Assembly (NCBI GenBank): GCA_963842945.1
Contig: CAWJIM010000021.1
Span: 308,853 to 372,852 of the forward strand
Source: an uncultured Gemmatimonadales bacterium
GTDB taxonomy: Bacteria; Gemmatimonadota; Gemmatimonadetes; Gemmatimonadales; GWC2-71-9
Length of the DNA: 64,000 nt
Direction: 5' to 3'
The translations under genes and the position numbers were made by a program. The notes below the pieces were generated by a model that was given only the letters and a program-made list of their open reading frames with translations, searched no databases and was not told the origin of the DNA. Positions 10,493 to 27,473 of the stretch are shown one piece after another (the stretch's first letter is position 1; every line of letters begins with the position of its first letter).

Positions 10493-10620
10493 GGGAAGGA
10501 CGGAAAGGTCGGGCAGGACGGGAAGGTATGATGGATAGGGAGTAGGGGGTGAAGGGGTATGCGCCTTGCTGCCTTTCGGCCTGTCCCGCATACCTTCCCG
10601 CCCTTCCCGTCTTTCCCTTC
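10493..10620. repeat. Inverted 9-mer arrays (GGGAAGGAC / CTTCCCGTC-like) between convergent genes
   Basis: gggaaggac-ggaaaggtc-gggcaggac-gggaaggta ... taccttccc-gcccttccc-gtctttccc. Confidence 0.7.
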
Positions 10621-11600
10621 TACCTCTTATACCGCTCAAGCGCCAGCTCCACAATCCGCTCGATCAGCTTGGGGTACTCGATCCCCGCAGCCCCCGCCGA
10701 CATCGCGAACTCACTGGAGCGCTCGAGATAACAGCTGGCGTTCACCTCGAGCACGTAGATATCGCCGGTGTCGGTGAGCCGTAGGTCCACCCGGCCGTAG
10801 TCGCGAACCCGGAGCGCCCGGTAGGCATCCACCGCGACCTTCTGAAGCCGGGCCCTGAGCTCGTCCGGAAGGTTCGCCATGACCGATTTCGTACCCTTGA
10901 ACTCCTTGCTTCGCTCATCCCACTTGGCCTTGCTGTCCAGCACCTTCGGCGCTCCCTCGGGGAAGCCGGTGAAATCCACCTCGACCGGCGGCAACGCCCG
11001 GGGCTGGGAGTTTCCCAGCACCCCGACGTAGAACTCCCGGCCATCGATGAATTCCTCAGCCAAGGCGGAGTCGTTGAGCTCCTTCCGAATGACAGCAACC
11101 CGTTCCATCAGTGCGCCGGCGTCGTGCACCAGCGACTTACCCCCGATGCCGATCGAAGAGTCGGATCTGAGCGGCTTGACGAAAAGCGGCATCCGAAGAT
11201 TGCCGCCGGTCTCGAACGCCTGCTGCCGGGAGAAGACCGCGAAGCGCGGATAGAGGATCTCCTCGAAGGCGAGAAGCTTCTTGGTCAGGCCCTTGTCCTG
11301 GCTGAGATACAGCTCGCCGGGGCCACTGCCGGTGTACTTGAGCCCGAGCAGATCGAGCAAGCCTGCCACCGGAATGTCCCCGAAGACATTGTCTCCGAAC
11401 ATCTCCATGAGGTTGAAGACCAGGTCGGGCTTGCGGCGGGAGAGCCCGGCGATGAGCCGCTTGACGTCTACGTGCACGCCGAGGATGGACACCCGATGTC
11501 CCAGGCTCCGCAGGGCCTTGGCGACCTGGGGAACGACCGCCTCGTACTCCTTCGAGTTCTCGTCTTCGCTGTCGAGATACGTCAGGACGGTGATCTTCAT
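10620..11600 (-). CDS. D-Ala-D-Ala ligase-like ATP-grasp protein
   Basis: DLVFNL, YTGS, DKGLTK, PLFVKP...SSIGI, EEFIDGREF, RDYGRVDLR, LEVNA; lacks the canonical Ddl GGxSxE N-terminus. Confidence 0.85.
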   Translation of the reverse strand: MKITVLTYLDSEDENSKEYEAVVPQVAKALRSLGHRVSILGVHVDVKRLIAGLSRRKPDLVFNLMEMFGDNVFGDIPVAGLLDLLGLKYTGSGPGELYLSQDKGLTKKLLAFEEILYPRFAVFSRQQAFETGGNLRMPLFVKPLRSDSSIGIGGKSLVHDAGALMERVAVIRKELNDSALAEEFIDGREFYVGVLGNSQPRALPPVEVDFTGFPEGAPKVLDSKAKWDERSKEFKGTKSVMANLPDELRARLQKVAVDAYRALRVRDYGRVDLRLTDTGDIYVLEVNASCYLERSSEFAMSAGAAGIEYPKLIERIVELALERYKR

Positions 11601-14658: not shown

Positions 14659-17600
14659 TCAGAACGGCTGCTCGAAGCTGAACACCCAGCGGAAGGCGAC
14701 GTCCTCATCTCCGGCGGTACCATCCGGCGCCAGCTCCGGGCGAGAGACGAAGAAGGGGAAATCGAATCGGGTGACGAACTCCGTATCGCCGATGCGATGC
14801 GCCGCGCGAACACCGAGACCCGCATCGGACAGGAAGCGGATGGTGCCGGTAGCCGGCGTCTGGCTCATGCTGCCGATGCCCTGGGCCAGGTCGGAGAAGA
14901 GGGCAATGCCCACCCGCTTGAATAGATGGGACTCGGGGCGGGAAAGCAGATCGTGCTCGACATCCAGATTGAGCGCGGCAATGGCGGAGGTGGACAACCG
15001 CGGGTCGACCCCCCGCACGCCGGCCCCACCGGGTGAGTGGTAGTGGATGTCCTCTCGGACCAGCAGAGCGCCACGCGAGCGAAGAAATGGGTTGTACAAC
15101 TGGCTCAGCGGATCCGAGCCCTGGAAATAGACCTGCCGCTGCTTGGCCGCATCGTGGTCGCTCACGCCGGCCGCCAGATAGCCTCGCACCCCCAGACGGA
15201 GGCCCCGCGCCAGATCTCGCCGGGCGATGCCCTCGATGAATCCATTGAAGTAGAAGGGATCCAGGTCGGATCGTCCGCTGGCCGCCAGGCCGTCGCGGTT
15301 GTAGGCCAATCCGCCGCCGAGCGAGCTGCGAGCGGAGAGCTCCCATTGGCCGCTCTCGGTCGAAATTCCGCTGCCGAATTGCAGCTCAACGATCCCAACG
15401 TCGTCGTAGTAGCCCGGATCCAGATACCGAGTGTCGTCGATCGCCACCCACCGAAGGCTCATCCGATGACTCCGGGTCGGGCCGAAGGTCAGGTGCGCTC
15501 GGCGGGACCATTCGAGATTGGCGGCGGCACCGTAGCGTCCTTCGATCTTGAAGGCATCGAAGGTCTGAGACAGGTTCGGCCCCCGGAGCACCACCGGGTT
15601 CTTGCCTCGGAGGAAGAAATCGATGTCCTTGACGTCGTCATCCACTCCCCAGCCCGTGCTCCCCCAGAGCATCGCAACGTTCTGCTCGAAGCGGCCGAGA
15701 TAATCATCCCGGCTGCGGAGACCGAGGGTGACTCCTCCGGCATCGTTGTACCACAGCGTAGGCTGCACGCCGACCGTGAGCCCCTCCCGGCGGGATCGGG
15801 TGGAGAAGTACGGATGGAAGTAGAAATCGGTGTTGGGGGGCGGGAGCAAGGCTCTGAGGAAGGGCCAGCCACCCAGCCGCTTCCGGTTGTTGAGCATGTT
15901 CCAGTCGTGAGTCTGCACCCGCGGGTCGAGCACCACTTCCTTCGGCTTGCTTCGGGTTCTCAGCGTTAGCCACTCCCGTTCGGCGAGTCCTTCCACTCGA
16001 TTTACCGTAGTGTCCTGCTGGGCGATCACGGCCACCTCTACCGGGATTCGGCCATTGCCCCTCCGCACTACTTCAACCCGGGTCAGCCAACCGTCCTCAC
16101 GTTCCGCAGGGCCCCCACGTTCCTCAGGTTTCTCACGTGCCGTCTTTACCTCACCCACCGCATAGTCGTAGAGCTCCGTCGTGTGCAGCCACTGGGCAAA
16201 GAAGGTCGAGAGATCCCGCTGGGACACTTCCTCGGCGACCGCGCGGAAGGCGGCCTCGTCCACGTGCTTCAGCTTCCAGCGCTGGTAGAACGTCTGGAGG
16301 ATGCGATGCATCGTCGCATCGCCGACGATGTACCGGAGCTGCTGAAAGAACAGCTTGCCCCGGACGTAGATCGCGGTGTTGTAGGAGCTGAAATCGCGAT
16401 AGTTCTCCGCCACCAGGCTGGGCGGTTCCGACTGGTCCTCGAGATCCAGCTGCAGGATGCCGGCCTCGGTTTCCTGGTACGTGCTCGGCCGGCCCATCAC
16501 TTCCCAGAACAAGTCGGTCTGAAAGCTGCTAAATCCCTCGTCCAGCCAGCCTTCCCGCCATTCATTGTTGGCCAGGATCCCCATGGTGTAGTTATGCCCC
16601 AGCTCGTGGACGATCAGCCCCTGATCGACCGAGCCGTTCATCATCATCATGGGGAACTCGGTGCCGCCGCCCTCGATCCGGTGGACGTTGGTGATCTGCG
16701 GCCAGGCGAAGGGGCCGTACAGCTGGCCCAGCCAGGCCAGCGCGGTCTCGGTTCGCTGCACCGCGAAGTTTCCACCCCAGGTGCTCTCGTCTCCGGGCTG
16801 GTAGAGGACATGCACCGCGACGTTGCCGTTGCGGCCTCCCTCGTAGCGGTAGTCGGGATTCAGCGAGAGCGCGAAGTGGTGTACGTCTCGGGCATACCAG
16901 CGCACAATCTTTCGTCCGGCGGCTGCCCCGTCGCAGGCCGCGGGCGGCGTATCGGGGCCGTAGTAGTCGCGCTGATACTCGATTGGTCTCGAGCGGTTGC
17001 GGTTGGCCCGCTCCCATCCGGGATCCCCGCACACCGGAACGCCGGTGGCGCCGATGACCTGATCCACCGGCACGTCGAGGTCCACCAGGAAAGTGGCGAA
17101 CTCACCGTAGAACTCGCCGGCAGGATACAGCGGATGTTCCTCCCAGCCGTAGCGGTCGTAGACCACCACCTTGGGATACCACTGGGCAAAGTCGAAACGG
17201 CGGCCCTGCCGGCCCTGCCGCCGGGGCACGGTGGAAGGTCGCGCGTCCCACTCGAGGTCTACCGAGACCGAATCGCCGGGCCGGAGCCGCTGGGGCAGAG
17301 CGAATCGCACGATGGTGCTGTCGGGCGTAAAAGGATAGACCGGCTCTACCGGGGTTCCGCCGATGCGCACGTTGCGCACGTGATTGAAGGCGAAGTTCGG
17401 CTCCTGAAGATCGTTGAACCGGCGCCGTCCTTCGGCCGAATCCGCGTCGGACCAGCGGGAGCCGGGCCGGAAAGCGTTGAGATAGAGGTGGAGAGAGAAT
17501 GAGCTCAGCGTATCGGGCGACCGGTTGACGTAGCGGATCTTCTCGGTCCCGCTCAGTACCCCACGCGGCTCGTCGAGGTGGGCGGAAATCTCGTAGGCAA

Positions 17601-23040: not shown

Positions 23041-24150
23041 TCATGCCTGGTCGAATAACGCTCCAACCGGGGCCAGCATCTGATCGAAGGAGACAAAGGC
23101 ATTCGCCTGCAGCTCGAAAACCCCGTCGAGCGCCTGCAGCTCGTCATCCGTGAGCGGCGTCCCATCGCTCCGGACGATCGTCGTGGTGGTGCCGTCGGTG
23201 GTAATCGTGGCGAAGGCATGCCCATTGACCAGGATATTGAACGTCCCGGTGGTATCGGTGAACTGACCGGTCATGGTGATGGTGCCGTTGGGGCCGGCCA
23301 TGACCAGGTTCACGTTGATGGGACTGTTCTGCTGGCTCACGTCACTCACGTTGACGCTGAGATCGATCGAGACATCGCGCTGGGGCAGATCCAGCGAGTA
23401 GGTCAGGGTCAGGCCGGCGGTAAAGGTGATGGTCGACCGCAGGTTGATGTTCGCCTGGGTGGTTCCATCGGTTACCATGCCGATCACCGTGACCCGGCCA
23501 CTCGAGGTTCCGCTGGTCGCGGTGACGGTGTAATCCACGTAGGTCGTCCCGCCCGACACCACCAGCACCCGCGCGGCCTGGGTGGTGCCGCCGCTGAGAT
23601 CGATCAGATCGACGTGTCCGGTCTCGACCAGTGGCTCGACCGGGATGTAGCTCACCGGATCCACCGCATACACGATGAAGCGGACCCCGTTGTTCGGAGC
23701 GCCGGTCAGATCCGAGAGGACGTACGCCTGGGTGCTGGGATCATAGACAAAGGTCTTACCCGCGACTTCAGCGGGGACCGCCGCGGCCGCGACCCGGCCC
23801 GACTGCAGCGAAGCTCCCTGCCGGCGCTGGAGCATGGCGCCCAGTCGCTGCGCGCTTCGAACCGCCGCCGCGCGCATGCCCTGCGCGTTCTTGCCGCGGA
23901 CGTCGATCGCCGCCACCGACGAGGAGATGATCGGCGAGCCGCCCAGGGCGGCGTCGAACATCACGCTGAAGGTCGAGAAGCTCGCGAACGCGTCCGAGCC
24001 AAAGGTCGAGTTCATCGCCTGAAGATCAGTCGAGGTGCCGGTCGGGTTGAACGGCGCATCCGGAGTCGATCCGCCTTCGCAACCGGCCAGTACGACCGAC
24101 ACCAACGCCACCGTCACGACAGATCGCTTGGCGAATTGCAGCACGCGCAT
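23041..24150 (-). CDS. Hypothetical lipoprotein
   Basis: GGAGG RBS, lipobox VLAG-C, Thr/Ser-rich beta content. Confidence 0.7.
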   Translation of the reverse strand: MRVLQFAKRSVVTVALVSVVLAGCEGGSTPDAPFNPTGTSTDLQAMNSTFGSDAFASFSTFSVMFDAALGGSPIISSSVAAIDVRGKNAQGMRAAAVRSAQRLGAMLQRRQGASLQSGRVAAAAVPAEVAGKTFVYDPSTQAYVLSDLTGAPNNGVRFIVYAVDPVSYIPVEPLVETGHVDLIDLSGGTTQAARVLVVSGGTTYVDYTVTATSGTSSGRVTVIGMVTDGTTQANINLRSTITFTAGLTLTYSLDLPQRDVSIDLSVNVSDVSQQNSPINVNLVMAGPNGTITMTGQFTDTTGTFNILVNGHAFATITTDGTTTTIVRSDGTPLTDDELQALDGVFELQANAFVSFDQMLAPVGALFDQA

Positions 24151-24309
24151 GGGTTCCGCCTCCATCAGGAGTGAGCAGTTGAGGGCGGCCCGTGCGTTGA
24201 GACGCGGGTCGAAAGCCGCCAAATCACCGACAGAAATGCTCTTGGGGGTGTCCCCAGGCCCTGCACTCTTCGCGCAGCGGCCCGGGACTGGGGCGGGATC
24301 AGGCAACGG

Positions 24310-25914
24310 CTATGCCAGCGTTTGCATTTCCTCTCTGGGTTCCACGGGAAATCCTTCGGCCTGCCAGGCTGCCCAGCCTCCTACCAAGGCTCGGGCCCGG
24401 GGCCATCCTCCCGCTCGAAGCTCTCGCGCCACCCGGGCGCTTGTGGCTTCGTCCTTTCACGCACAGTAGAGCACTACCGTGGCGTGATGGTCGAGCCCCA
24501 GTTGACGGGCTCGTCGGACCGCATCGTCAGGCGGAAGACGTATGGCGCCGCGAGCGATGAGTTTGTCCGCCGAGAAGCTGCGGTCGGTGCGGACGTCGGC
24601 CAGGATCACCGGCGCGCCGGCCTCCTGCAGCTGCCGCAGCTCGTCCAGGGTGATGCGCTCGGGTACCTGGATCTTCAGATCCGGCTCGGTAGTCACCGGA
24701 GCGCTGGTAACCGCCGCCGGCTCGGCGACCTGCCCTTCGCTCTTGCGGAGGAAGATCGCGATGCCGGTGCCGTGCAGCAGCACGGACAGCAGGACCACCA
24801 GGCAGGTAATGACGAAGAGGCGCTCGCTTCCGGGCGCCCCGGCAAACACCGGCAGCAGGACCAGCAGAAGGGAGCTCAAGCCCCGCGGTCCGGCCCAGGC
24901 AAGGATGCGGCGCGTTTTCCGCTCCACCCCGAGACGGCCCAGGACCGGCAGCAGGACCGCTGTCCGAGCCAGCAGCGCGACACCCGCGAACGCCAGTGTG
25001 GGTAGATCGACGGCGCCAAGGCCGCTCCAGATCAGGCCTGCGCCGAAGGCGACAAAGGTGAACAGCAGGAACATCTCCGCCGTCGCCTGACCGTAGTCGA
25101 GGAAGCAGTCACAGAGCTCCACGTCGAGCCGGGCGATCACCACACCGGCCGCGAAGGCCGCCAAAAATCCGCTACCGCCCACTGACTCCGCGGCAGCATA
25201 GGCGGTGAACGCCACGCCCAGCGCGTATAGCGATTCGTAGTCCCGCCGCACGCTCACCCGCTTTCGCACCTGTTCCAGCAGCGTGATGGCGACATAGCCG
25301 ATCAGGGCACCGAGGAGAGGCCCCAGGAGAAAGAGCCCCACCGCGTGCCGGCCCAGCTCGGACTCGAGGTCGGTATCGGAGTGGAGCGCCAGCATGCCGA
25401 GCACCACGATGGGGAGCAACACCACATCGTTGATCCCACCCTCCAGGCGTAGCGCCTCGCGGGCCGCTGGGGGAAGGCTGGAGCGCCGGGTCAGACTCCT
25501 CAGCATCACCGGATCGGTGGAGGCCAGAGCCGCGCCCAGAATCAGCGAACGAATCACTCCCAGATCGAGCAGCAGCCAGGCCGCTAGCGCGATGAGTACC
25601 GCGGGAATCAGCGTTGCCGGACCGAGGATCGTCAGCAGGAGCCGGCGGGGCCGGCGGATCTCGCTGAAGTCCAGCGCGATCGCGTCGGTGAACAGCACCA
25701 GCACCAGGCCGAGCGTCGCGATCCACTGGAGGGTGGGTGAGGCCAGCGTAAGCTCGACCAGATTCAAGCCCTGCGGGCCGACGATGACCCCGAGCAGGAG
25801 GAAGATCGCGACCTGGGAAACTCCAGTCCGCTCCACCAATCCGGACAGGAGCGAGGAGACCAGGATGACGATCCCGATCAGGGCGAGCGCGGGCGCTAAA
25901 GATTCGGCAGCCAT
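24310..25914 (-). CDS. CPA1 cation:proton antiporter fused to a rhodanese domain, probable selenoprotein (UGA at 24457-24459)
   Basis: LFTDA, GAALASTDPV, EGGIND, GPRGLSS antiporter motifs; DVR...IARGAIRL...VVLYCA-UGA-KDEATSARVA...ALVGGWAAWQAEGFPVE-TAG completes the rhodanese fold in frame. Confidence 0.85.
24426..24440 (-). promoter_or_regulatory. Candidate bacterial SECIS hairpin
   Basis: GCGCC-CGGGU-GGCGC begins 16 nt 3' of the in-frame UGA; G-containing apical loop. Confidence 0.6.
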
Positions 25915-25994
25915 GCGCGAAGTATGCTGTCAGCAGGAAGTCATTGCGAGGGCAAGGTCATTGCGAGCCCGCGGAGAGCGGGCTAACCTCGCCC

Positions 25995-27473
25995 ATGACC
26001 TCCGAGCCCGAGTCCACTGCCCTCCTGCTCACCACCTGCGGCGTCCTGCTCGGCGTGAGCGTGGTGTTCAGCCGGGCATCCCAGCGGACCGGTGTGCCCA
26101 TCGCGCTGCTCTTCATCCTCGTGGGAATGCTGGCCGGCTCCGAGGGGCTGGGCCACATCGCCTTCGACGACTATCGCTTCGCCTTCCGGGTGGGCACAGT
26201 TGCCCTCGCGCTGATCCTGTTCGATGGCGGACTCAACACGCCACTCAGCGCGGTCCGCAAGGCCGCCGCCCCAGCCGGCGTACTGGCAACCGCGGGTGTC
26301 GCGGGCACGGCGCTGTTGGTGGCGGTCGGGGCAAATGCCGTTGGACTGGGTTGGCCGGAGGCGTTGCTCCTCGGCGCCGTGGTCTCGTCCACCGATGCCG
26401 CAGCCGTCTTCTCGGTGCTCCGCGGCAGCGGACTTCAGCTCAAGCGGCGGGTCGGCGTCACCCTGGAAGTAGAGTCGGGCATAAACGACCCGGTGGCCTT
26501 CATCCTCACCACGGTGCTCACCGGTAATCTGCTCCAGCCGGGCTCGGCCGCGGGCCTCCGCATCCCGCTCGAAATCCTGTTTCAGCTGATAATCGGCACC
26601 GCGGTGGGAGCCGGTGCCGGTTATGGCGGTCGCCATCTCCTGTCGCGGCTCCGCCTGTCGGCCGGTGGCCTCTATCCGGTACTGACGCTGGCGCTGGGGC
26701 TCAGCGCCTTCGGCGCGGCAACCCTGCTGCACGGAAGCGGTTTCCTGGCGGTGTACCTGGCCGGACTGCTGCTGGGCAACGGTCCCCTGCCCTATCGCAC
26801 CGGACTCCTTCGGGTGCACGACGCTCTCGCCTGGCTGAGTCAGGTCGGCATGTTCCTGATCCTGGGACTGCTGGTGTATCCCTCCCGCCTGCTCGACGTG
26901 GCAGCTATCGGCCTCGGCCTCGCGCTGCTGCTCGCGATAGTCATCCGTCCGCTGGTGGTCGCGCTGTGCCTGCTTCCCTTTCGCTATCCCGGGAGGGAGG
27001 TGCTCTATATCGGCTGGGTGGGACTTCGCGGAGCGGTTCCCATCGTGCTCGCCACCTTCCCGGTGCTGGCCGGTGCTCCTGGTGCCGGCCGCCTGTTCGA
27101 TCTGGTGTTCTTCATGGTGGTGGTGACCGCGCTGGTTCCCGGCGCCACGGTAGCCTGGGTCACTCGCCGGCTCGGCCTCCAGAGCAAAGAGCCGCCCGCG
27201 CCTCAGGCCGTCCTCGCCATCGAATCGCGCCAGCCGCTCCAGGGTGAGCTGATGTCCTTCTATATAGATGAAGCGCTGGTGGTAGCCGGAATGCCGGTGG
27301 GAGAGCTGCCGCTGCCTGAAGGATCGGCCGTGACGCTCATCGTGCGGAACAACCGCCTGCTTCCCCCGGCTGCCGATACGCGGCTGGAGCCGGGAGACCA
27401 CGTGCATCTGATCGCCCAGCCGGAGGACCGGGGGCTGATTCAGCTGATGTTCGGCAGACCCGAGGAGGAGTGA
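25995..27473 (+). CDS. K+/H+ antiporter (NhaP2/CvrA-like) with TrkA-C domain
   Basis: GMLAGSEGLG, LILFDGGL, SSTDAAAVFS, ESGINDP, WVGLRGAVPI. Confidence 0.9.
   Translation: MTSEPESTALLLTTCGVLLGVSVVFSRASQRTGVPIALLFILVGMLAGSEGLGHIAFDDYRFAFRVGTVALALILFDGGLNTPLSAVRKAAAPAGVLATAGVAGTALLVAVGANAVGLGWPEALLLGAVVSSTDAAAVFSVLRGSGLQLKRRVGVTLEVESGINDPVAFILTTVLTGNLLQPGSAAGLRIPLEILFQLIIGTAVGAGAGYGGRHLLSRLRLSAGGLYPVLTLALGLSAFGAATLLHGSGFLAVYLAGLLLGNGPLPYRTGLLRVHDALAWLSQVGMFLILGLLVYPSRLLDVAAIGLGLALLLAIVIRPLVVALCLLPFRYPGREVLYIGWVGLRGAVPIVLATFPVLAGAPGAGRLFDLVFFMVVVTALVPGATVAWVTRRLGLQSKEPPAPQAVLAIESRQPLQGELMSFYIDEALVVAGMPVGELPLPEGSAVTLIVRNNRLLPPAADTRLEPGDHVHLIAQPEDRGLIQLMFGRPEEE

Follow-up and report, generated by a model that had tools for sequence, protein, structure and literature searches.

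Rhodanese domains in which a selenocysteine (Sec, U) lies two residues past a conserved cysteine are an already listed type of predicted selenoprotein: NCBIfam holds the CxU rhodanese as NF041203 (rhodanese_LYCAU), a 'rhodanese-related (seleno)protein' or "form 3", and 'COG0607 form 2, CxU' stands among the selenoproteins in the available part of PMC9312934. The transport-linked selenoproteins given in the available parts of PMC9312934 and PMC13188914 are ATPases, ABC components, YeeE and efflux proteins, with no antiporter of the cation/proton antiporter (CPA) group. The available parts of these two reviews do not mention an antiporter fusion, nor does that of PMC13188914 contain the word 'exchanger'. 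Fusions of DedA with a rhodanese have been noted as unexplained, and DedA has been linked to selenite resistance, in the portion available of PMC10127716. The Escherichia coli fdhF Sec insertion sequence (SECIS) has an upper stem-loop with a bulged U that starts 11 nucleotides (nt) after the UGA, and read-through at UGA-Sec codons in this bacterium has an efficiency of 1-3% (PMC8659212, as far as its accessible sections go). No paper joining a rhodanese with NhaP was found in a search outside which subscription journals and supplements lie, where the fusion may appear; papers naming selenoprotein, antiporter and rhodanese together dealt with other subjects, judging by their titles and the starts of their abstracts. 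Here we describe a gene located in a stretch of 64,000 nucleotides (the window) from contig CAWJIM010000021.1 of an uncultured Gemmatimonadales bacterium from soil. By sequence comparison it is almost certainly a selenoprotein gene, and its product, an NhaP-type antiporter with a C-terminal CxU rhodanese, would be a new architectural variant of the known predicted selenoprotein domain type.

In the list of open reading frames (ORFs) the gene appears as a minus-strand ORF at 24457..25914, with its ATG at 25914, 485 amino acids, the last residues VVLYCA and a TGA as the stop codon. A preliminary description of the locus had claimed that the frame goes on for 48 codons beyond this TGA to a TAG, and that the read-through supplies the missing half of a rhodanese fold, and it had inferred a product of 534 residues with Sec at position 486. 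The frame and the completed fold were upheld, and the inferred product is supported. The minus-strand letters around the codon are GTG CTC TAC TGT GCG TGA AAG GAC GAA, and the TGA occupies 24459..24457. When it is read as U, 48 more codons follow (KDEATS...MQTLA) before a TAG at 24312..24310, and VVLYCAU takes up residues 480-486. The main features are the following:

24310..25914, minus strand: complete coding sequence of the putative antiporter-rhodanese selenoprotein, 534 amino acids plus TAG (24310-24312); orthologs align end to end
24742..25860, minus strand: NhaP-type CPA1 cation/proton antiporter domain, residues 19-391 (PF00999, 3.1e-41)
24355..24651, minus strand: C-terminal rhodanese domain, residues 422-520 (PF00581, 6.4e-11, profile positions 1-102 of 102)
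24463..24465, minus strand: Cys484 codon (TGT), the first residue of C-x-U; its TG is invariant in 50 aligned rows
24457..24459, minus strand: predicted Sec486 codon (TGA), invariant in 50 of 50 aligned loci
25105..25113, minus strand: membrane-domain Cys268-Asp-Cys270 within DVELCDCF, invariant in the fusions

PF00581 is covered in full with the 3' extension, which is therefore the second half of the rhodanese domain and not noise. The end-to-end alignment of orthologs comprised 17 sequences with 64-93% identity. In public gene calls the best 120 database homologs have 443-490 residues and PF00999 only, the rhodanese domain being found in none of them. The public proteins of this family are systematically about 49 residues short, so that surveys based on domains miss a probable selenoprotein and a putative regulatory domain.

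The conservation of the TGA was followed by a six-frame search of 60 relatives, 36 of which belong to the same genus. All 36 genomes of the genus have the gene. In 33 of them the match includes the rhodanese part, always with the TGA; of the other three matches, one was cut by the end of a contig and two were weak and confined to the antiporter. Nineteen fetched loci (L023-L041) all read LYC[AT]U[KQA][DE]EATSARVARELR with the TGA in a single column, and the motif EATSARVARELR..GW...GGW..W is kept downstream of it across orthologs. In a sample of 401 genomes of the phylum, TGA was present in all 43 rows at E <= 7.2e-14; stop-free matches started only at 29-42% identity, and those inspected were ordinary or other rhodaneses. 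Full antiporter fusions reading YCAU or YCTU were seen at thirteen loci, which belong to eight additional genera of two families, while further Gemmatimonadota loci code for stand-alone proteins of about 120 residues and, in two cases, for VTT/DedA-rhodanese fusions. The TGA column is fixed in 50 of 50 Gemmatimonadales loci, down to 36-40% identity of the domain. Homologs thus keep both the TGA and the protein beyond it, as the preliminary description had supposed. Conservation at the nucleotide level is also high: among 16 orthologs with 62-94% pairwise identity, synonymous-codon identity is 0.91 over the 12 codons after the UGA, compared with a mean of 0.57 for the gene (standard deviation 0.08) and 0.76 for the best other group of codons. 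The codon was also looked up in independent sequence data, a check named in the preliminary description. Contigs from two soil DNA runs and one rhizosphere RNA library (X1, X2, X11) span 24457-24459 with no differing letter; all four runs used consist of assembled contigs, the best of them contains no more than 0.39 of the sampled words, and they show the letters of the codon rather than expression level or transcript ends. Since independent runs have the identical codon, a private sequencing error is excluded.

In another rhizosphere RNA library (X16), several contigs match only about 50 nt around the UGA and the hairpin described below (24416-24470), with 5-6 differences in this segment and unrelated sequence after it. 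This pattern fits the sharing of a conserved UGA-hairpin segment by many genes or strains.

The second element expected for Sec insertion lies directly 3' of the TGA:

24417..24450, minus strand: SECIS-type hairpin with lower stem GAAGC/GCUUC, internal loop, upper stem GCGCC/GGCGC and apical loop CGGGU; upper-stem covariation

The preliminary description had placed a GCGCC-CGGGU-GGCGC hairpin 16 nt past the UGA. Its position was confirmed, the first base lying exactly 16 nt after the UGA (GCGCC at 24440-24436, CGGGU at 24435-24431, GGCGC at 24430-24426), and covariation over 50 loci was added. The upper stem has 5 bp and the loop 5 nt of the form C-G-[G/U]-G-[U/C]; the lower stem GAAGC...GCUUC (24450-24417) holds within the genus only. 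The alignment used for the hairpin covered 57 nt around the TGA in the 50 loci, with 48 distinct rows, and the row of locus L056 is the majority sequence. No row breaks any of the five pairs of the upper stem (240 of 240 cells paired). At pair 28-38, 46 rows have G-C and 2 have A-U; at pair 29-37, 44 have C-G and 4 have U-A; and pair 27-39 is U-G in one row. Cells changed on both sides number 6, compared with 0.6 in shuffles, and none of 500 shuffles reached 6; paired cells amount to 87.3% in the true register and to no more than 53.2% when the 3' partners are slid. Over the 50 loci, chance falls far short of explaining the conservation and covariation. The compensatory changes alter two amino acids each (SARVA to STRVV or SVRVT), which is what one expects if the RNA rather than the protein is the constraint. 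Residues 490-496 take only 7 distinct forms in the 50 Sec rows, 39 of which read ATSARVA, compared with 57 distinct 7-mers for the same segment in 111 forms with Cys, although the Sec rows also come from a narrower taxon. The hairpin would offer a clear case, found in nature, of an RNA structure that sets the sequence of a protein. A conserved in-frame TGA together with a conserved and covarying hairpin makes Sec decoding the most likely explanation, and we consider it very probable indeed that the TGA at 24457-24459 is decoded as selenocysteine. General reassignment of TGA was rejected because TGA is the terminal stop in 4 of 19 orthologs (of the rest, 14 have TAG and 1 is cut by the end of its contig).

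Homologs with Cys at the Sec column, another expectation of the preliminary description, were readily found. An exhaustive profile-free protein search with the 126-residue tail returned 2791 proteins at E <= 0.001. Among the 150 matches listed, 43 end one residue before the Sec column and are therefore truncated Sec forms. Nineteen longer tail homologs were fetched; 16 are C-x-C (e.g., FCACPNEETS and LYCACVDDATS), 1 is C-D-S and 2 are frame-shifted gene calls. A search from one Cys-form fragment produced 120 full-length antiporter-rhodanese proteins of 509-678 residues, labeled as Armatimonadota (Fimbriimonadaceae, Capsulimonas corticalis), Myxococcota, Gammaproteobacteria, Nitrospirae/Manganitrophus and others, many of which bear the JGI name 'NhaP-type Na+/H+ or K+/H+ antiporter/rhodanese-related sulfurtransferase'. 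Of these fusions, 110 have Cys in each of the two rhodanese columns, 9 have a gap and 1 has Gly. In a FastTree phylogeny built from 92 fusions, one branch with an SH-like support of 99 separates the 30 Sec forms from the rest, and midpoint rooting nests them inside the Cys forms. This is compatible with a single change from Cys to Sec, although the root is not established and the Sec rows all come from one order.

The genome is a metagenome-assembled genome (MAG) of 24 contigs, 86.9% complete with 6% contamination. The preliminary description had pointed to the Sec machinery as a further check, and selA, selB, selD and tRNA-Sec were all located, selA and selB being fragmented in the assembly:

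C15:14378-14471 and C1:150251-150344 of the same MAG: tRNA-Sec genes (ARAGORN and bit scores)
C2:138515-139839 of the same MAG: selA, matches in three frames
C2:8832-10665 of the same MAG: selB, matches in pieces

In a profile search of the genome selA scored 286.9 bits (cut-off 267.9), and the best piece of selB, which has others close by, narrowly missed its cut-off of 242.25 with 235.2 bits. The selD match (366.3 bits) is of the Sec type, with its own in-frame TGA at HGAGUACKLG and a hairpin downstream. The two tRNA-Sec genes have the anticodon TCA, were both called tRNA-SeC by ARAGORN and scored 70 and 63 bits; in a MAG with this contamination the pair may be a duplication or may include a gene of a second strain.

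The membrane domain was examined on an AlphaFold model of the window protein. The mean predicted local distance difference test (pLDDT) score is 72, the rhodanese part reaches 76-90, and the linker 394-414 is disordered with pLDDT <50. The top Foldseek matches were PaNhaP (4cz8) and MjNhaP1 (4czb), with E 8e-11 and a TM score of 0.72 on the target. PaNhaP T129/D130, N158/D159, R337, R362 and E73, which we take to be its ion-site and charge-compensating residues, align with T133/D134, N162/D163, R317, R344 and D77. This set of residues suggests a membrane domain that functions as a cation/proton exchanger. On the basis of 13 predicted helices and the distribution of Arg and Lys in the loops (positive-inside rule), we infer that the N-terminus is outside and the tail inside, and that RLDVELCDCF lies where helices 9 and 10 end on the cytoplasmic side. 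The preliminary description was also correct about a CxC in the membrane domain: ELCDCF corresponds to residues 266-271 and the longer DVELCDCF to 264-271, with the two Cys encoded at 25113-25111 and 25107-25105. Both Cys268 and Cys270 are kept by 17 of 17 close orthologs, by 13 of 13 additional Sec fusions and by 120 of 120 Cys fusions, while the position is taken by unrelated residues in 4 of 4 CPA1 relatives without a rhodanese, the divergent neighbor of the gene included. Loci L095 and L099 were left out of the latter comparison, their longest ORF being an antisense frame. As the fusions were gathered by similarity, the pairing of CxC with CxU is a co-occurrence and not an independent test. 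Extending over more than 150 sequences, this pairing of two C-x-C/U motifs amounts to a concrete and testable hypothesis of redox control of Na+(K+)/H+ exchange.

The rhodanese loop departs from that of ordinary sulfurtransferases. The upstream strand register (TVVLYC) puts C484 on the canonical catalytic Cys and the downstream helix register puts U486 there; both were seen against 6mxv, in an ungapped alignment to domain 1 and a gapped alignment to domain 2. The active-site loop exceeds the canonical one, which has six residues and is usually basic, by two residues and is acidic, CAUKDE here and CxCPNDE in the Cys forms, unlike the loops of the sulfurtransferase chains aligned for comparison, such as YCGGGFRS. 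In the better model, that of a Cys form (pLDDT 85.6), both Cys lie between strand 529-533 and the start of helix 537-551. Against NF041203, an equivalog model, the tail scored 85.8 bits, below the curated cut-off of 115 bits, over profile positions 20-126 of 126; in a genome search with the same profile the window copy had 82.6 bits and a paralog on contig C19 had 87.6 bits.

A divergent second antiporter, which the preliminary description had reported, is present beside the gene:

25944..27473, plus strand: second antiporter, PF00999 and TrkA_C (Pfam), divergently transcribed; a conserved neighbor

The same divergent pairing of antiporters is found beside the ortholog in relatives (adjoining rows at about 30% identity). 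The other neighbors in the window are ATP synthase subunits, a MoxR ATPase, peptidases and a lipoprotein-like ORF; no genes for sulfur or selenium metabolism or for metal resistance were found among the neighbors of the window copy. The ORF directly downstream of the selenoprotein gene (23041-24306, minus strand) has a lipoprotein-like start further in (…VLAGCEGG) and no Pfam match. The paralog on C19 (C19:710456-712060) is full, has 64% identity and keeps the TGA. Its divergent neighbor with PF00999 and TrkA_C lies at C19:712140-713529 (plus strand, matches in two frames); with both members present there, the gene pair was duplicated as a unit. The same region holds three direct copies of a 118-nt segment, at C19:698561-698678, 705579-705696 and 710466-710583 (L102:3562-3679, 10580-10697 and 15467-15584). 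One is the 3' end of the C19 paralog, and the other two are orphan fragments with similarity from exactly the TGA to the end of the gene and unrelated sequence upstream. The GC content between the copies is 0.60-0.69, compared with 0.71-0.74 beyond them. The arrangement of these repeats resembles one left by serial insertion into a site within the SECIS region. None of the 18 ORFs scanned in the 12 kb between the three copies is an integrase; the matches there are to a P-type ATPase, a Ser/Thr kinase and response regulators.

The function that we tentatively favor, at a little below even chances, is that of a tail that senses redox state, or else sulfane sulfur, and gates cation/proton exchange. 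The tail would occupy the place where the paralogs carry the regulatory TrkA_C domain. Cys484-x-Sec486 would form a reversible selenenylsulfide or carry a persulfide, and its state would be relayed to Cys268/Cys270 at the cytoplasmic face, altering the activity of the exchanger. That reversible oxidation at C484/U486 is what is relayed, with a resulting change in transport, is a proposal of about the same tentative standing or slightly below. The more specific possibility that the two pairs make up a four-chalcogen inter-domain redox relay switching the antiporter is doubtful. Cross-talk between the CxU and the membrane CxC, a tentative idea of the preliminary description, is made more plausible by the presence of the membrane CxC in all 120 Cys-form and all 13 additional Sec-form fusions, and by its predicted location on the same, cytoplasmic side as the rhodanese. 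Observations counted in favor of a sensor or gate are the membrane CxC of every Cys form (120) and Sec form (30) examined and its absence from the four rhodanese-less relatives, the acidic loop, the placement of Cys/Sec486 between a strand and the N-terminus of a helix, and the TrkA_C of the paralogous neighbor. The analogy is with the C-terminal regulatory domains of CPA transporters (TrkA_C of the neighbor, KTN of KefC). As bacterial Sec insertion is inefficient, a truncated 485-residue product, with an incomplete rhodanese domain, is probably made as well, more so when selenium is scarce.

Several observations weigh against this interpretation, and most of them concern Sec insertion itself. 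Folded as a segment of 81 nt with the UGA inside, the RNA shows no excess stability over shuffled sequences (z = +1.42), and its minimum-free-energy structure does not contain the hairpin, so that stability by itself is uninformative here; an Rfam scan of 24300-24520 returned chance-level matches only and no SECIS family. Like the fdhF element, the hairpin lies inside the ORF directly 3' of the UGA and has G and U in its apical loop, but it starts 16 rather than 11 nt after the UGA and has no bulged U (PMC8659212, accessible sections). The assembled selA is distributed among three frames and carries two single-base insertions compared with the intact gene of the relative G024, and selB is in pieces. 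These breaks reflect either assembly indels or decay of the Sec machinery. Of 5 relatives searched, 4 have an intact selA, and only in the fifth, another few-contig assembly, is the gene fragmented too; on this ground we tentatively take the breaks for assembly indels. All Sec rows come from one order, so that part of the conservation reflects relatedness, and the case for Sec insertion is built on comparison of sequences. One close but fragmentary homolog, P0122, has Leu at the Sec column. This 296-amino-acid fragment from a 1139-bp contig has 73% identity over the tail, reads LYCALMDEQTRARVA and is also changed in the peptide that the hairpin encodes. It may have decayed, or it may do without Sec. 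As for gating, it is an argument by analogy, and the disorder of linker 394-414 in the model does not help it. If the TGA were instead a genuine stop codon, or if it came from a pseudogene lesion or an error of sequencing, the gene would code for only a 485-residue antiporter followed by a broken rhodanese remnant. Gene callers do end the best 120 database homologs at about 485 amino acids, selA and selB look frameshifted, and termination certainly competes with Sec insertion, as the low read-through in E. coli illustrates (PMC8659212, accessible sections). However, a lesion or an error cannot explain a TGA common to 50 loci, and the strong conservation of the downstream protein, the frozen synonymous sites, the compensatory changes in the hairpin, the Cys in homologs and the identical letters in independent runs all speak for a codon that is read through. 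Sequencing error and pseudogene were rejected on these grounds, and we regard a real stop as extremely improbable.

With Sec decoding retained, two other functions compete with gating. The rhodanese could be a working sulfur or selenium transferase, in which a sulfane sulfur or selenium species on C484/U486 is passed to or from C268/C270 at the cytoplasmic mouth of the membrane domain, a chalcogen compound is moved or delivered, or the enzyme is simply anchored to the membrane. Rhodanese domains are sulfurtransferases by family (PF00581), the same CxU/CxC module is fused to the unrelated VTT/DedA domain (Sec in L074 and L075, Cys in P0177), and both the known DedA-rhodanese fusions with the DedA link to selenite resistance (PMC10127716, portion available) and the other transporter-associated selenoproteins on record (PMC13188914, available part) agree with such a role. 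It is nevertheless unlikely: the membrane domain keeps the full cation-site set of PaNhaP and looks like an ordinary exchanger, the longer loop, acidic and not basic, argues against chemistry of the thiosulfate type, and the neighborhood holds no genes of sulfur or selenium metabolism. Alternatively, C268, C270, C484 and U486 could form an inter-domain site for a soft metal (Cu, Zn, Cd or Hg) that switches the antiporter or holds the tail. The 2+2 arrangement of Cys/Sec is kept in 110-120 of the 120 Cys forms, acidic residues flank both motifs (DVELCDCFLDYG, CAUKDE), and most transporter-associated selenoproteins are tied to metal or metalloid resistance, with Sec maybe acting as a metal ligand (PMC13188914, available part). 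Metal-resistance genes, on the other hand, do not flank the window copy. To our knowledge it would also be unusual for Sec to be chosen over Cys as a purely structural metal ligand, and we consider this site improbable. The redox-sensing gate remains our tentative preference.

If the four-chalcogen relay is true, it would be a selenium-dependent link of redox or reactive-sulfur stress to pH and ion homeostasis, a regulatory principle not known to be described for CPA transporters, and the supply of selenium would set the ratio of regulated full-length to unregulated truncated protein. In that case the presence of the CxU/CxC rhodanese in VTT/DedA proteins as well would make it a portable sensor module. 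As far as our searches show, the gene codes for a putative Sec-bearing secondary ion transporter, common in soil Gemmatimonadales (all 36 genomes of its own genus, and at least 8 genera besides).

The proteins closest to the one described here are the Cys-form fusions (e.g., P0336, the Capsulimonas corticalis record), which have the same architecture, the DVELCDCF motif (120 of 120) and the same position of the rhodanese loop; they differ in having C-x-C-P-N-D/E-x-T-S in place of Sec, without the constraint of a hairpin. PaNhaP and MjNhaP1 share the 13-helix CPA fold and the TD, ND and two Arg residues at about 22% identity, but they lack both the C-terminal rhodanese and the CxC, and PaNhaP has a longer unrelated segment where DVELCDCF lies in the present protein. 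KefC (8bxg, 8by2) is the nearest functional parallel, a CPA-fold exchanger with a C-terminal cytoplasmic domain that reads thiol or electrophile status. It ranked 9-10 in Foldseek with a root-mean-square deviation of about 12 Å over the full length, and it uses a KTN/RCK domain that binds glutathione adducts; Pfam detected no such domain in the window protein, whose tail is a rhodanese with Cys/Sec and which does not belong to the KefC family. The VTT/DedA-rhodanese fusions carry the same CxU/CxC module at the C-terminus of a membrane protein (Cys form P0177), but their membrane domain is PF09335 and their loop reads LYC[ST]UPNE (LYCSUPNEATS, LYCTUPNETTS). The two Sec members, L074:1035-2021 (genome G433) and L075:1068-2072 (genome G102), have the same hairpin as well, and so do the stand-alone rhodaneses L076-L079 of related genomes. 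With NF041203 the tail has in common the LYCAU motif, the rhodanese fold and a Sec two residues past the conserved Cys. In that family, however, these features belong to a stand-alone protein of about 126 residues, while here they are found in the C-terminal domain of a 534-residue membrane transporter.

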